DNA of 64,000 nt, taken from positions 192,001-256,000 of the forward strand of contig CAWECG010000001.1 of assembly GCA_963807605.1 (NCBI GenBank). Reading direction: 5' to 3'. Under the pieces are notes generated by a model. It saw only the letters and a program-made list of their open reading frames with translations. It was not told the DNA's origin and did no database searches. The stretch is from Candidatus Bathyarchaeota archaeon. GTDB lineage: Archaea; Thermoproteota; Bathyarchaeia; 40CM-2-53-6; RBG-13-38-9. Positions 17,117 through 23,009 of this stretch are shown here, one piece after another. Made by a program: the position numbers and the translations under genes. Each line of letters begins with the position of its first letter. Position 1 is the first letter of the stretch.

Positions 17117-17803
17117 TTACTTTTTCTCAACGAGTTCAGCAAAGCCGTCCTCTAGGTGGCCTCTATCTCCAAGCCAGATCTTATGAAAATCCCTAACGAC
17201 TAACCTTTTCTTGAATAAGGGACCGTCGAGCACGAAGGTCTCGTACTCTCCTCCCTCGCCCGAGAGATTCACCCCGTACTTGTCTCTCAAGAGAATTAAC
17301 TCTTTGATTGCCTCTTGGTCAAGTTTCCTGCCAAGCCATTTCTGGCCTAGACCTAAAGCTGCTACCGCAACTATTACCGGGTTAAGCCCTGACATCAATT
17401 GATCATGGAGAAGCTGTAGAGGATCCAGCCCCCATAATGGTGTGAAACACTCCATTCCAAGGTATCTCGCCGTCTCCTCTATCCTTTTTTTCTGGTATTG
17501 GCTTGCAATAGCTCCAGCAGCAATCCCGTCTATCCCGAAGCGCTTCTTAACTTCTCCCAGATGTCTTTTGAGTTCGTCCTTTTCTTCTTCTCCCTGCCCC
17601 GTTATGTTATAGGTTAAGATTGGCAGATCCATAGCTTCGGCTTGTAGGGATGTCCATTGAATGCAGGGGTGGTGGAAGAGCCATGATTCATCGCTTCTAG
17701 GGATAAATGTGATCAGGTGCTCGATATCGAAATTCTGTTCTCGGGCCTTCATGATTGTGTAGCAACTGTCTTTTCCGCCGCTGAAGAGGACTCCTACTCG
17801 CAT
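17117..17803 (-). CDS. dph6: Diphthine--ammonia ligase (Dph6)
   Basis: FSGGKDS PP-loop, GAIAS.YQ, PLW, GEGGEYETFVLD. Confidence 0.93.
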   Translation of the reverse strand: MRVGVLFSGGKDSCYTIMKAREQNFDIEHLITFIPRSDESWLFHHPCIQWTSLQAEAMDLPILTYNITGQGEEEKDELKRHLGEVKKRFGIDGIAAGAIASQYQKKRIEETARYLGMECFTPLWGLDPLQLLHDQLMSGLNPVIVAVAALGLGQKWLGRKLDQEAIKELILLRDKYGVNLSGEGGEYETFVLDGPLFKKRLVVRDFHKIWLGDRGHLEDGFAELVEKK

Positions 17804-18265: not shown

Positions 18266-18623
18266 GCCATGTTTCAGAGGGAACGTCTTCAAAGAGTTCT
18301 CCCCATTTTTTTTGACGTGTGATTATAACGTCTCCGAGCTGGTGGGCATGAAAGATAATTCGAAGAAACGCGCGCGCTTCCTGAACACCTAATCCACTAG
18401 CGCCCATGCTCGTAACTGTACTGTCTGTCTTCACAGTAGAATCCCACATTGGGATGGCAGGCCATATGCATTATCCTACGGGCGAACGCTCCGCAGACTT
18501 TTTGCGTGCACAACAGAAAGTCAAAAGCCTCGAGGTAACGTCTCACTGAAAAGACAAACTATAAAAGTTTACATGATCTTTTGGAGCTAGCCTTTAGCAA
18601 ATTTAGGACTGGAGTAAATAGAG

Positions 18624-20841
18624 ATGCCGCATTACAAGTCAACTGCAGAGATAATGAAGATAATACAACACAAGGATCAGATCCGAAAGATCTAGGCAAC
18701 ATTTGCCTAGTCCGGAATATATTGGTATTATCGCCCATGTTGATCATGGCAAGACTACCATGTCTGATTCCTTGTTAGCCTCCTCCGGTTTACTTTCTCC
18801 ATCCGTAGCCGGAAGTGCCTTGGCTCTTGACTATATGGAGGAGGAACAGAAAAGACAGATGACTATCAAAGCTGCTAACGTCAGTCTCCTGCATGAAAAG
18901 GACGGAGTTTCCTACGTCATTAACCTCATCGATACACCGGGACACGTCGACTTCTCAGGTAGAGTAACAAGATCTCTGAGGGCGATCGACGGCGCCGTTG
19001 TGGTTGTTGACGCTGTTGAAGAGGTCATGGTCCAAACTGAGACAGTGACGCGGCAGGCCCTTGAAGAGAGGGTTAGACCTGTCCTCTACGTCAACAAGAT
19101 CGACCGGCTCATCAAGGAGCTCAAACTAAGCCCGGAACAGATCGAGGAAAGAATTACCAGAATAATCAGGGATTTCAATCATTTAATTGAGATGTATGCT
19201 GAACCTGAGTTCAAGAACAATTGGAAGATTAGTTTTGCGACCAACACGGTGGCTTTGGGCTCAGCCAAGGATCGTTGGGGTTTCAACTCTGAGATTGCTA
19301 AAAAGAAAGGAATCAAGTTCTCTGACATTGTCGTTGCCTATGAGCAGAATAAGGTTGAGGAGTTGAGGGAGAAGGCTCCGCTTAACGAAGCCATACTGAA
19401 CATGGCTGTCGAGTCGATGGCCCCACCAGATGTTGCCCAAAAATACAGGATCCCAAAGATCTGGAAGGGAGATATCAACAGCGATATCGGCCAGGCGATG
19501 ATGAATTGTGATGACAATGGCCCGGCTGTGATGGCCGTCTCAAACATTGTCGTCGATCCTCAAGCTGGGGTCGTTGCAACGGGTCGTCTCTTCTCCGGAA
19601 CTCTGCGTGAAGGGGATACGGTCCATTTGGTTGGGGCCAAGTCCGACTCTAGGATTCAACAGGTCTGTATATACATGGGTCTTTACAGAGAGATAGTCGG
19701 CGAATTAACGGCTGGAAATATCCCAGCGCTATTAGGGCTTGATGCTGCGAGGGCTGGTGAGACGATCTCCTCGGCAAAAGATGTGGCGCCTTTTGAAGCT
19801 GTCAAGTATGTTACAGAGCCTGTTGTAACGCTGGCTGTCGAGCCGAAGTACAGTAGAGATCTACCAAAGCTTGTTGATACTTTGAGAAAGCTCTCGATCG
19901 AGGATCCTAACTTGGTCACAACGATCAATGAGGAAACTGGGGAGTACCTCATTGCCGGTATGGGCACGCTACACCTTGAGATAGCGACGACCTTGATTCA
20001 AAAGACAGGTCTCCAGATCACTATGTCGAAACCCATCGTCATCTACAGAGAGAGTATCAGGAAGCCTGCAGGCCCAGCCGAGGGTAAGTCGCCTAACAAA
20101 CACAGCCGGATCTACATCGAGATTGAGCCTATGAGTGAAGAAATTGTGAACATGATTAAGACAGGCGAGATCGGCGAGTATATGGACAAATCGGCAATGG
20201 CAAAGATCCTGAGAGAACACGGCTGGGCCCCTGATGAGGCAAAGGGTGTCTGGAGCGTAGATGAGGGTTGCAACATACTCACCGAGGTTACCAAAGGAGC
20301 CCAATTCCTACAAGACGTCAAGGATATGGTCGTCGCTGGTTACAGGTGGGGGATAAAGGAAGGACCATTGGCATATGAGCAGATTAGAGGAGTGAAGGCC
20401 AAGATTGTCGATATCCAACTTCACGAGGATCCGGTTCACAGAGGACCTGCCCAGATAATGCCCATGACAAGGAGAGCCTTCTTTGTCGCCTTCCTCTCCG
20501 CAGAGCCGACACTTCTTGAGCCGATTCAGAGGATGACTGCGAAGGTCGCTCCAGACCTTCTAGGATCAGTGACCAGCGTAATTAGTCAGAAAAGAGGAAA
20601 GGTTGTCTCAGTGGATCAGAAGGAAAACATAGTATACATAGTAGGCGAGATGCCCACCGCTGAGACTTTTGATCTCTCTGAGTCCCTTCGAAGCGCAACC
20701 GCGGGGAGGGCTTTCTGGGGTCTAGAGTTCGCCAGATGGTCTGCTGTTCCAGCGTCATTAATCGGTCAAGTCATTCAAGACATTAGGAAGAGGAAGGGGT
20801 TGCCGCCTGAGCCCCATAAGGCCCAAGACTTCATGGAGTAG
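18624..20841 (+). CDS. fusA: Elongation factor EF-2, two exons (18624-18687 + 18719-20841), 728 aa after splicing
   Basis: Exon 1 MPHYKSTAEIMKIIQHKDQIR joins exon 2 to give RNIGIIAHVDHGKTT; DTPGHVDF, NKID; diphthamide loop HEDPVHRGPAQ. Confidence 0.95.
18688..18718 (+). other. 31-nt bulge-helix-bulge intron in the EF-2 pre-mRNA
   Basis: Central helix TCCG/CGGA, 3-nt bulges AAA and ATA, intron stem GA-CTAGGCAA/TTGCCTAG-TC; canonical cuts restore the frame and the conserved RNIG. Confidence 0.88.
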
Positions 20842-21231: not shown

Positions 21232-21732
21232 TCATTTCTCCCTTAGCTTTATTGCTGCCACAAGTGTGGCGAGAGATAGGCCGATGACCGTGCCTCCTGC
21301 AACAAGTATCTGAAGTATTGAGGTTAGAGGGATGGTGACTAGGGGGATGGTTTGTGGTTTGTTGATGAAGTGAGGGTCATGACAGCCGGTGCAATTGATA
21401 GTGATAATCCCGTGCTTTCCGTCTTTCCAAGCTTGGTAGAACTCCGCGTGGCACTGGGCACAGAGAGTAGGGGATTGCTCTATGGGAATTACTTTTCCAT
21501 TCTTGAGTGTCAACGTTGACATATCGGGGCTATGGCATGTTGTGCAGGGGGACGTGGGAAATCTATGCCTATCCATGCTCATGGGATGACATCTGGTACA
21601 GTCCACATTATCAGGATCAGACGCCTTGAAGTACTGGCTCTGCAACACGATGACAGCTACAACTAGAATAAATGCAAGAAAAATAACGATCCTTTTCAGA
21701 TCTGTTGGAGTTCTTGCTTCGAGCCTTGTCAT
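21232..21732 (-). CDS. Membrane-anchored tetraheme cytochrome c
   Basis: Four CxxCH motifs (CTRCH, CTTCH, CAQCH, CTGCH); N- and C-terminal TM helices. Confidence 0.9.
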   Translation of the reverse strand: MTRLEARTPTDLKRIVIFLAFILVVAVIVLQSQYFKASDPDNVDCTRCHPMSMDRHRFPTSPCTTCHSPDMSTLTLKNGKVIPIEQSPTLCAQCHAEFYQAWKDGKHGIITINCTGCHDPHFINKPQTIPLVTIPLTSILQILVAGGTVIGLSLATLVAAIKLREK

Positions 21733-21748
21733 AATTGCTCACTATGAT

Positions 21749-23009
21749 TCAGTGTTTGAGCGCATTTGCCATAAGATCCATCACCGAGGTTACCTTGACT
21801 CCAAGGTTATAGTGTTCGTTCAGATCATTCAGTTGTGAGCGACAATTCTCGCAAGCGGACGCGACGGCGTCTGGCTTCGTCTCTCTTATCTGTTCAGCCT
21901 TCCTTCTTCCAGTCTTCATCCTCAACTCTTTGAAATCTGGTACTGCTACAACACCGCCACCAGCTCCGCAGCACCAATTGTATTGCCTGCTTGGGGGGGC
22001 CAGTTCTCTGAACTCCTTCACAGCGGCTCTTAGAACGGTTCGAGGCTCTTCGTAGATCCCGCCGTTTCGTCCAAGCTGGCAAGGATCGTGATATGTTACG
22101 ACTTCAGGGTTTGCTGATGGGTCGAGCTTGACTCTCCCGTCTTGGAGGTACTTGGCCATAATCTCCACGATGCTCTTGACTTGGAAGGGGAAGCTTCTGT
22201 TGAACCACTTTGATGCGAACTGCTTCATCACGCGGTAGCCATGTCCACACTCAGTCATGACGACGCTCTTTACATTTAACGTCTCGGCTTCCTTTATGAT
22301 CTGGCCTGTCAGGACCTTGGCGGCTTCAATATCTCCTAGAAAGTAGCTGTAGTTGGCTGCGTCAAAGAGGCTTAGCGACCAGCTATCTTTGGTATAGTTG
22401 AAGATCTTCGCAACCGGCATTATCGTGTGTGCTCCTGCTATGGGAACGTACAGCATATCCGCACCCCGGTTCTTGACCGGGATTCTTGCTTCTGGATCCG
22501 CAGTCTCTGTCTGAAGCTGGGTTTCCAAGGTCTTAATTTGTTCCAGGTAGAGATCTTCGTATTGTGAGATGTTCTTTGCCTTCTCAACCCCGACTTGAGC
22601 TATCATTGTGAGCATCTCAGGGGCTGTGCCTCCGGTCTTGCAGAGGAATCTTCCGGCTGAGACTGGCCAGGGAGGATTCTATGCCGAAAGGGCAGTGGAC
22701 AGTGCATCTTCTACACAGAGTGCACTCGAACATGGCATCCGAGACCTCTTTGAAGTTCTCATCGTTAAGCTCCATGGCTTTGAAGAACTTCGGGGCTAAT
22801 CTTCCTGCGAGGGTGTAGTATCTTCTGTGGACTCTGCGCAACAGGGCAAGCTTGTAGGCTGGTGAGTGGATCGGTGCATCGGTCTCGTAGTACATGTGGC
22901 AACGTTCTGTACAGGCACTGCAACGGGTGCAAGTGTCCAAGTGGTAGAATGCCTGTCTGGTCAGTCTCTTCTCAAGTGTCGCTGCAGTCTCTTTTCTGTT
23001 GTCAGTCAT
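21749..23009 (-). CDS. HdrD/DsrK/TmcB-like Fe-S oxidoreductase, split by a +1 frameshift near 22665
   Basis: 5' part has CTRCSACTERC and CTLCRRCTVHCP; 3' part has CCG domains TECGHG, YHDPCQLGR, CCGAGGG, ACENC. Confidence 0.88.

Follow-up and report, generated by a model that had tools for sequence, protein, structure and literature searches.

The window analysed here, a stretch of 64,000 nucleotides (nt) from a genome of Candidatus Bathyarchaeota (G000:C1:192001-256000; the genome is 2.65 Mb and 94% complete), contains the gene for the archaeal elongation factor EF-2. Its reading frame is broken close to the start by 31 nt, positions 18688-18718, that are very probably an archaeal bulge-helix-bulge (BHB) intron in the coding sequence of what is a single-copy gene. 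In the mechanism that we propose, one pre-mRNA would be transcribed from a promoter upstream of the ATG at 18624, and in the RNA the TCCG of exon 1 would pair with CGGA of the intron 3′ end, with two 3-nt bulges, a hairpin and a weak helix between the exons around it. A two-subunit EndA, its alpha subunit catalytic and its beta subunit structural, would cut after the second base of each bulge, and RtcB would join the exons and probably circularise the 31-nt intron. Joining would form an Asn codon, A|AT (vertical bars mark junctions throughout), and place exon 2 in frame to give an EF-2 of 728 amino acids (aa). Unspliced RNA would yield a 23-residue peptide only, since a stop follows the 5′ splice site and there is no general start in the downstream frame. 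Cleavage, ligation and intron circularisation in vivo are what we infer from the sequence.

The interrupted gene and its predicted fold

The frame that opens with ATG 18624 reads MPHYKSTAEIMKIIQHKDQIRKI and is closed after 23 codons by TAG 18693-95, while the body of EF-2, IGIIAHVDHGKTT, is in another frame, inside an open reading frame (ORF) at 18703-20841. (All the coordinates given for this arrangement in the original prediction, which was made from the letters of the DNA and a list of its ORFs, are correct.) Deletion of 18688-18718, recomputed here, gives ATC CGA A|AT ATT GGT, for I-R-N-I-G, and a protein of the predicted length which contains the conserved IRNIGIIAHVDHGKTT and ...KDQIRNIGIIAHVDHGKTT. 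In nucleotides the spliced junction is ...CAGATCCGAA|ATATTGGTATT..., with the tryptic peptide NIGIIAHVDHGK being possible solely from spliced mRNA and ...PEYIGIIAHVDHGK being the peptide end expected of a reading that contains the insert.

Translated 18721-20838 matches the NCBIfam model TIGR00490 (aEF-2) with 857.6 bits at profile positions 22-720 of 720, so that the missing part is exactly what exon 1 encodes, and the Pfam domains GTP_EFTU, EF-G D2, III, IV and C are all found in exon 2. The N-terminal 60 aa of the spliced product are 83-85% identical, end to end, to those of intronless EF-2 proteins. Where exon 1 differs among relatives it does so mostly at third codon positions (alignment A1), and in many of these relatives a GGAG/GGAGG-like motif stands at an equal distance before an exon-1 start that can be ATG, GTG or TTG. 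The sole other match of an EF-2 query in the genome is the gene for the initiation factor aIF5B. In two loci of the same genus (L028 and L054, genome G001) exon 1 has a different 5′ half (MILAYYLMKIVMNKDQIR), with intron and splice site unaltered.

The minimum free energy (MFE) fold of 18666-18736 (-16.8 kcal/mol, z = -2.5 versus shuffles) reproduces the TCCG/CGGA helix, the unpaired AAA and the hairpin 18689-18712, all of which had been predicted, with ATA 18717-19 coming directly after the central helix. The intron-side helix h′ adjoins the 5′ bulge and the central helix, as in known BHB motifs. Along the 5′ strand of the modelled structure at 18676-18726 the exon helix is followed by the central helix, the bulge and the intron helix, and along the 3′ strand the intron helix is followed by the central helix, the bulge and the exon helix, which is the topology of an archaeal BHB. 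The cut between the second and third bulge residues that was applied is the rule stated for cbf5 introns (PMC2738675).

A BHB-like shape alone is common and so is not decisive: in a loose genome-wide structural scan 779,374 of ~743 million (start, length) pairs pass, or ~0.1%, and the case therefore rests on comparative data. What goes beyond chance is that the BHB coincides with one of two equivalent pairs of cuts by which both the frame and the protein motif are restored, and that it recurs with covariation in 64 loci.

The insert among relatives

The comparison involved 110 EF-2 loci, from 40 genomes of the order and 80 public genome contigs, of which 8 are without the 5′ end, leaving 102 that are informative. 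An insert is present at exactly this codon in 64 of them, in Bathyarchaeia and in four metagenome-assembled genomes (MAGs) of Nitrososphaeria, and there is none in the other 38. Presence or absence and stem covariation in fusA of relatives had been put forward as a check on the intron, and both came out in its favour, the central and the intron helices being compensated. When cut by the same rule, 63 of the 64 give [IV]-R-N-x-G (the exception, L098, gives L-R-A-V-G), where the exon-2 frame bases just upstream of the junction would encode Y, D, N or H. Pair counts and the statistics on lengths and stops are based on the 51 distinct insert sequences (alignment A1). Lengths are from 25 to 54 nt, and fall in the three mod 3 classes in the proportions 21/15/15.

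Pairing in the central helix, which is TCCG/CGGA in 41 sequences, TCCG/CGGG in 5, TTCG/CGAA in 4 and TGCG/CGCG in 1, is 100% in the 51 homologues, with compensatory CG to UA changes in the four Nitrososphaeria loci and changes from U-A to U-G in some others. The four intron-helix pairs beside the bulge are 94% paired and each of the four is altered on both sides among homologues. None of 500 shuffles attains the observed pairing or covariation, and controls in which the partner strand was slid gave pairing of 26-53% versus the 82.5% observed. In the 3′ bulge the first two bases vary (AT, AG, TA, AA, AC, CA) and the third, which splicing would place in the middle of the Asn codon, is A in 50 of the 51 sequences. 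Intron-bearing loci have their flanking codons fixed as AT[CT] and CGA or CGT. In intronless loci, Arg is encoded by AGG, CGC, CGT, CGG, AGA or CGA, Ile by ATA, ATT or ATC, and the alternative Val by GTG or GTC. This freezing of codons is confined to the intron-bearing loci, so RNA structure constrains the exon bases only in genes that have an intron to remove.

In 47 of the 51 distinct introns (44 TAG, 2 TAA and 1 TGA; columns 24-26 of A1) a stop stands three codons after the Arg codon, and in the remaining four an exon-1-frame stop comes within six codons, so that all 51 have one. The occurrence of three stop triplets at one position suggests, from the alignment, selection for early termination on unspliced RNA. 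The conserved UAG may also partly reflect hairpin geometry, its U being the bulged base. A near-fixed stop position is not common to all five of the other introns of this genome considered below.

In a quick maximum-likelihood tree from the first 254 EF-2 residues, the intron is present in 45 of the 52 rows of the main Bathyarchaeia clade, with the intronless rows there forming one or two subclades, and also in two deep Bathyarchaeia rows and in the four Nitrososphaeria rows, those with the compensated TTCG/CGAA helix. The Caldarchaeales, Wolframiiraptor and other Nitrososphaeria sampled are without it, and a search across the class with an intronless N-terminus has many intronless families among the matches listed. 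At least six gain or loss changes are needed on the tree, two of them forced by well-supported branches. The pattern fits an intron of old origin that has been precisely lost in some lineages; its gain more than once at this site is an alternative history that the tree would also allow. A different type of insertion occurs in genus g9 of a sister family, f2 (L025 and L026, from genomes G016 and G025) and in L115, where EF-2 is without the BHB intron but has an intein of ~480 residues in the P-loop (AHVDHGK|C...VVHN|TTM in f2/g9, 12 codons downstream of the intron site).

Splicing enzymes and further mRNA introns

Two genes with tRNA-intron endonuclease (tRNA_int_endo) domains and one for RtcB are present in the genome (Table 1). 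The best solved relatives of the putative alpha subunit are 2cv8, 3p1z_B/3ajv_B and 2zyz_B, the first of which is from Sulfolobus tokodaii and the last from Pyrobaculum aerophilum, all of them crenarchaeal catalytic subunits. The pair 3p1z_B/3ajv_B is A. pernix EndA, and cleavage of relaxed and non-canonical motifs is conferred by the Crenarchaea-specific loop together with the Lys at K44 (PMC3241643). By alignment, the alpha subunit here retains the Tyr/His/Lys triad, a Trp, the Crenarchaea-specific loop without gaps, and a Lys aligned with A. pernix K44. A predicted two-subunit, broad-specificity EndA of crenarchaeal type fits the relaxed motif of EF-2. With intron detection switched on, ARAGORN reports no more than 31 tRNA genes for this 94%-complete genome, and 25 of these contain an intron.

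That other apparently truncated core genes would hide such introns was part of the original prediction, and is borne out on the genome sequence for five further genes, aIF5B, argF, rnhB, nadE and cbf5. In each the geometry and the cut rule are identical to those of EF-2, and splicing by them restores a protein motif that is universally conserved. The genome would thus hold at least six mRNA BHB introns. The genome-wide scan for BHB introns at apparent frameshifts that had been suggested with it was run, as a de novo census combining BHB geometry, ORF logic and codon scores in several versions. It gave mostly false positives and missed known cases with a short first exon, and for this reason only the six introns verified by conserved protein motifs are reported here. 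No convincing further copy of the EF-2-type intron sequence was found in the genome.

The aIF5B intron, 43,951 bases before the start of the window, is a canonical BHB in the P-loop codons, with an outer TCTA/TAGA helix, a central GGCC/GGCT helix and a 6-bp inner helix. It has been conserved in families f1 and f3, where its stems covary, and the genomes examined from f2, f5, f6, f7 and f8 do not have it (loci L132-L161); its distribution is thus different from, and narrower than, that of the EF-2 intron. Two translation GTPases, EF-2 and aIF5B, accordingly have introns at, or just upstream of, P-loop codons. In cbf5 the codon for the catalytic Asp is cut after its first base, G|AC. The crenarchaeal cbf5 intron has been assigned to the identical boundary, and unpublished partial cDNAs from several species agree with the predicted borders (PMC2738675).

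Table 1. Positions of the EF-2 locus elements in the window, and of splicing genes and further introns elsewhere in the genome (G000)
Feature	Location	Strand	Details
TATAAAAG	18560..18567	+	possible archaeal TATA box (putative role), 56 nt upstream of start codon
GGAG ribosome-binding motif	18611..18614	+	9 nt upstream of ATG 18624
EF-2 exon 1	18624..18687	+	21 codons (MPHYKSTAEIMKIIQHKDQIR) and first base of Asn codon
Exon-exon (outer) helix, 5′ strand ATCAGA	18676..18681	+	partner 18720-18726, A18721 bulged; weak
Central BHB helix, exon strand TCCG	18682..18685	+	pairs with CGGA 18713-16 in MFE fold
5′ bulge AAA	18686..18688	+	unpaired in fold; predicted EndA cut 18687/18688
Intron	18688..18718	+	31 nt; removal restores frame and IRNIG
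Intron hairpin (inner helix h′)	18689..18712	+	arms 18689-18699 and 18703-18712; loop CAT 18700-02; U18691 bulged
TAG stop, exon-1 frame	18693..18695	+	third codon after Arg codon
Central BHB helix, intron strand CGGA	18713..18716	+	MFE fold and homologue pairing
3′ bulge ATA	18717..18719	+	predicted EndA cut 18718/18719
EF-2 exon 2	18719..20841	+	last two Asn-codon bases, 706 codons and stop
EndA alpha	G000:C4:303338-303904	minus	188 aa; passes TIGR00324 endA equivalog cut-off
EndA beta	G000:C3:661461-661988		175 aa paralogue; below equivalog cut-off, matches beta-subunit models
aIF5B intron	G000 C1:148014-148050	minus	37 nt; restores VLGH|VDHGKTT
argF intron	G000 C1:88030-88060	minus	31 nt; restores STRT|RASFE
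rnhB intron	G000 C4:128220-128245		26 nt; restores GVDEAGR|GPLLGP
nadE intron	G000 C3:875125-875156		32 nt; restores LGY|FTKFGDG
cbf5 intron	G000 C3:1143681-1143699		19 nt; restores GGTL-D-P

Rival readings, known systems and implications

Several points weigh against an intron. The spliced junction, the circular intron and the junction peptide are all predictions from sequence. No RNA run containing the stretch is listed among the sequencing runs, and three nanopore metatranscriptome runs (same study, 80% likeness) gave two short unrelated pieces and no junction. The spliced 60-aa N-terminus, compared with a collection of 5.8 billion proteins, found intronless lineages only and no protein from an intron-bearing lineage in which exons 1 and 2 are joined. 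(A scan of metagenome contigs for the spliced junction yielded 13 contigs, all from intronless lineages.) The z-score from single-sequence folding, -2.5, is modest. The exon stem that was part of the original prediction, ATCAGA / T(A)TTGGT, can be drawn and is absent from the MFE fold; in the 51 homologues it is 75% paired without compensatory support, two of its six pairs being mostly unpaired. Given this weak outer exon helix, the EF-2 motif is best called a relaxed BHB and not a strict hBHBh′, and cleavage of a relaxed motif would depend on a broad-specificity enzyme whose activity is here a prediction. All the genomes in the comparison are metagenome-assembled, yet 64 independent assemblies concur on the insert. 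On the other side, the claim that EF-2 synthesis would need removal of the intron by an EndA-type enzyme draws support from the homologous site, covariation, the frozen codons, the lack of a general start, and the presence of genes for EndA and RtcB.

The insert could instead be kept, with EF-2 initiated internally at TTG 18703 (MPSPEY...) and its first 21 residues absent, the 23-codon ORF then being a separate leader peptide. The TTG is in frame in this window and a 712-aa ORF starts from it, and the original prediction had named it as the reading that could overturn its own. However, in 47 of the 51 distinct intron-bearing loci the stretch from the upstream stop to IGIIA offers no ATG, GTG or TTG in frame with exon 2, so that the TTG is an accident peculiar to this genome, where it is inside the intron hairpin and without a ribosome-binding motif. 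With exon 1 being conserved as a genuine EF-2 N-terminus (its variation is at third positions and it has its own GGAG), and exon 2 lacking exactly the 21 aEF-2 profile positions that exon 1 has, internal initiation is very unlikely. Ribosomal recoding over the insert, by programmed frameshifting or translational bypass, has a superficial likeness in its favour, as there is a stop two codons past the junction, a stable hairpin and a short gap. It is hardly credible with insert lengths in all mod-3 classes and a stop in every locus, even in inserts of in-frame length, so that no single shift direction, and no readthrough, serves all the orthologues. Further, the invariant Asn codon arises only when A and AT are joined at the BHB cut sites, no matched take-off and landing codons were found on inspection of the exon-2 frame in the window, and what is conserved and covaries is the element that EndA recognises, 4 bp of helix flanked by two 3-nt bulges, rather than a bypass signal. 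Least of all is to be given to an assembly or sequencing artefact or a decaying pseudogene, the probability of which is close to nil. In its favour is the metagenomic assembly. Against an artefact, and in agreement with the original view that this is not a homopolymer error, the 64 related loci, which come from numerous independent assemblies and studies, have the insert at the same codon, and its sequence differs by lineage and shows compensatory changes. Against a pseudogene, EF-2 is essential, and being single copy in a genome that is 94% complete it is not dispensable; its exon 2 is intact over 706 codons with the high aEF-2 score given above.

Other classes of intervening sequence were also considered. 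For a self-splicing group I or II intron or a known RNA family there is no Rfam match, in the whole window at the gathering score or in 18500-18900 at E up to 1, and at 31 nt the insert is far below the size of a ribozyme core. It is not an intein either, being of that length, frame-shifting and stop-containing.

A rival of a different kind accepts that the intron is spliced and adds that it is a control point, with the output of EF-2 and aIF5B gated by EndA/RtcB and the stop keeping unspliced mRNA silent. For this there is the stop at one codon in 47 of 51 homologues with three different triplets, the position of introns at or near P-loop codons in two translation GTPases, and the heavy dependence on EndA that comes with introns in 25 of the 31 tRNA genes reported by ARAGORN. 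However, argF, nadE and rnhB, which have no link to translation, also have introns; related lineages live without the EF-2 intron; the function of the long-known cbf5 intron is itself still unknown (PMC7714728); and the conserved UAG may be in part a matter of hairpin geometry. A control point is on balance improbable, and the coupling of translation capacity to EndA activity that the original prediction proposed is speculative.

Returning to the intron as such, the nearest parallel is the BHB intron in the cbf5 pre-mRNA of Crenarchaeota (Watanabe et al. 2002; Yokobori et al. 2009, PMC2738675). Both the cbf5 and the EF-2 introns are short, lie in coding sequence, have a relaxed BHB and are cut between the second and third bulge residues. 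In both a conserved codon is disrupted, making splicing obligatory, and in both there is a link to hetero-oligomeric EndA and patchy gain or loss among relatives. The cbf5 intron of the present genome is in the crenarchaeal cbf5 codon and phase, G|AC. What sets the EF-2 intron apart is its host gene, which codes for an essential translational GTPase, and its occurrence in Bathyarchaeia and in a small number of Nitrososphaeria MAGs. Directly behind its 5′ splice site an in-frame stop is conserved, and in the genome examined here at least five other mRNA introns accompany it; further, it is known here from sequence, whereas for crenarchaeal cbf5 there is cDNA.

Non-canonical BHB introns of tRNA and rRNA are cut by (alpha-beta)2 EndA with the Crenarchaea-specific loop (PMC3241643, PMC5829648), and have in common with the EF-2 intron a 4-bp helix, two 3-nt bulges, relaxed flanking helices and the predicted enzymes. 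In EF-2, however, the substrate is an mRNA and the outcome a restored reading frame, not a mature tRNA or rRNA. A Haloferax volcanii mRNA, HVO_1309, has a BHB intron in its 5′ untranslated region (UTR) that is cut by the archaeal splicing endonuclease, and in the 2020 study of EndA substrates from which this comes the cbf5 mRNA is, besides that 5′-UTR case, the only BHB intron reported outside tRNA and rRNA (PMC7714728). Unlike in EF-2, the HVO_1309 intron is in an untranslated leader, of a euryarchaeal gene, and the reading frame is uninterrupted.

More distant cases are instructive for what they share. Splicing of HAC1/XBP1 mRNA is spliceosome-independent and stress-regulated, with IRE1 as the endonuclease and, in metazoa, RtcB as the ligase. 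There too a short mRNA intron defined by structure is excised, exons are ligated and the reading frame is changed, but the endonuclease and the motif are others, the systems are non-homologous, and the stress regulation is a contrast to EF-2, for which regulation is not shown. In phage T4 gene 60 ribosomes bypass a 50-nt gap, with a stop codon and a hairpin following the take-off site. The resemblance to EF-2 is that a short non-coding gap in a gene starts near a stop codon in a hairpin; unlike gene 60, in EF-2 gap lengths vary, the covarying element is a BHB, and inspection finds no matched take-off and landing codons.

As judged from these comparisons, the EF-2 insert is an archaeal BHB pre-mRNA intron, widely conserved, in an unexpected and essential host gene, and it belongs to a set of such introns in several genes of this lineage. 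The original prediction knew of no described EF-2 intron, and none was found by a full-text literature search, with most subscription journals being outside its coverage; a detailed study of archaeal EF-2 evolution that includes Bathyarchaeota does not mention one (PMC6143161). For over twenty years until now, cbf5 has been the sole coding-sequence case of archaeal EndA-dependent mRNA splicing, as the 2020 study says in so many words (PMC7714728). The present case is one where an essential, highly expressed core gene of translation apparently needs the tRNA-splicing pathway across a large, environmentally abundant and uncultured class, a need that in this genome extends to five or more other genes. 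Splicing of mRNA by tRNA machinery may thereby turn from a curiosity into a regular feature of some prokaryotes, with many natural substrates, accompanied by covariation data, becoming available for work on broad-specificity EndA recognition and on intron gain and loss. It also raises the question of whether translation capacity is tied to tRNA-splicing capacity.

There are consequences for annotation. The usual start rules call the gene in this window from the TTG, losing the first 21 residues, and in most relatives the exon-2 frame offers no start. Genes such as those for EF-2 and aIF5B are therefore likely to be entered as truncated or frameshifted in these MAGs. Such mis-annotation could affect marker-gene phylogenies and estimates of completeness.

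Taken jointly, the observations permit a wider and tentative reading, which we regard as possible and would not press. In it, BHB splicing of mRNA by tRNA enzymes would be routine and multi-gene in Bathyarchaeia and in at least one Nitrososphaeria lineage, including EF-2 and aIF5B; the EF-2 intron would be old, given that most families of the order have it, together with two deep Bathyarchaeia branches and one clade of Nitrososphaeria; the stop would have been selected to silence unspliced mRNA; and translation would be gated by EndA/RtcB. With six genes verified on genome sequence, the multi-gene part is largely shown; this does not extend to the gating and the antiquity.

The neighbours of EF-2 in the window include, divergently oriented at 17117-17803 (minus strand), a gene for a Dph6-type diphthamide synthase (PF01902, 214 bits), an enzyme modifying EF-2 itself. 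Just downstream of EF-2, at 21232-21732 and 21749-22615 (minus strand), are genes for a small protein that has four haem-binding motifs (CXXCH) and weakly matches a paired-CXXCH domain, and for a CCG-domain protein that is HdrD/GlcF-like.

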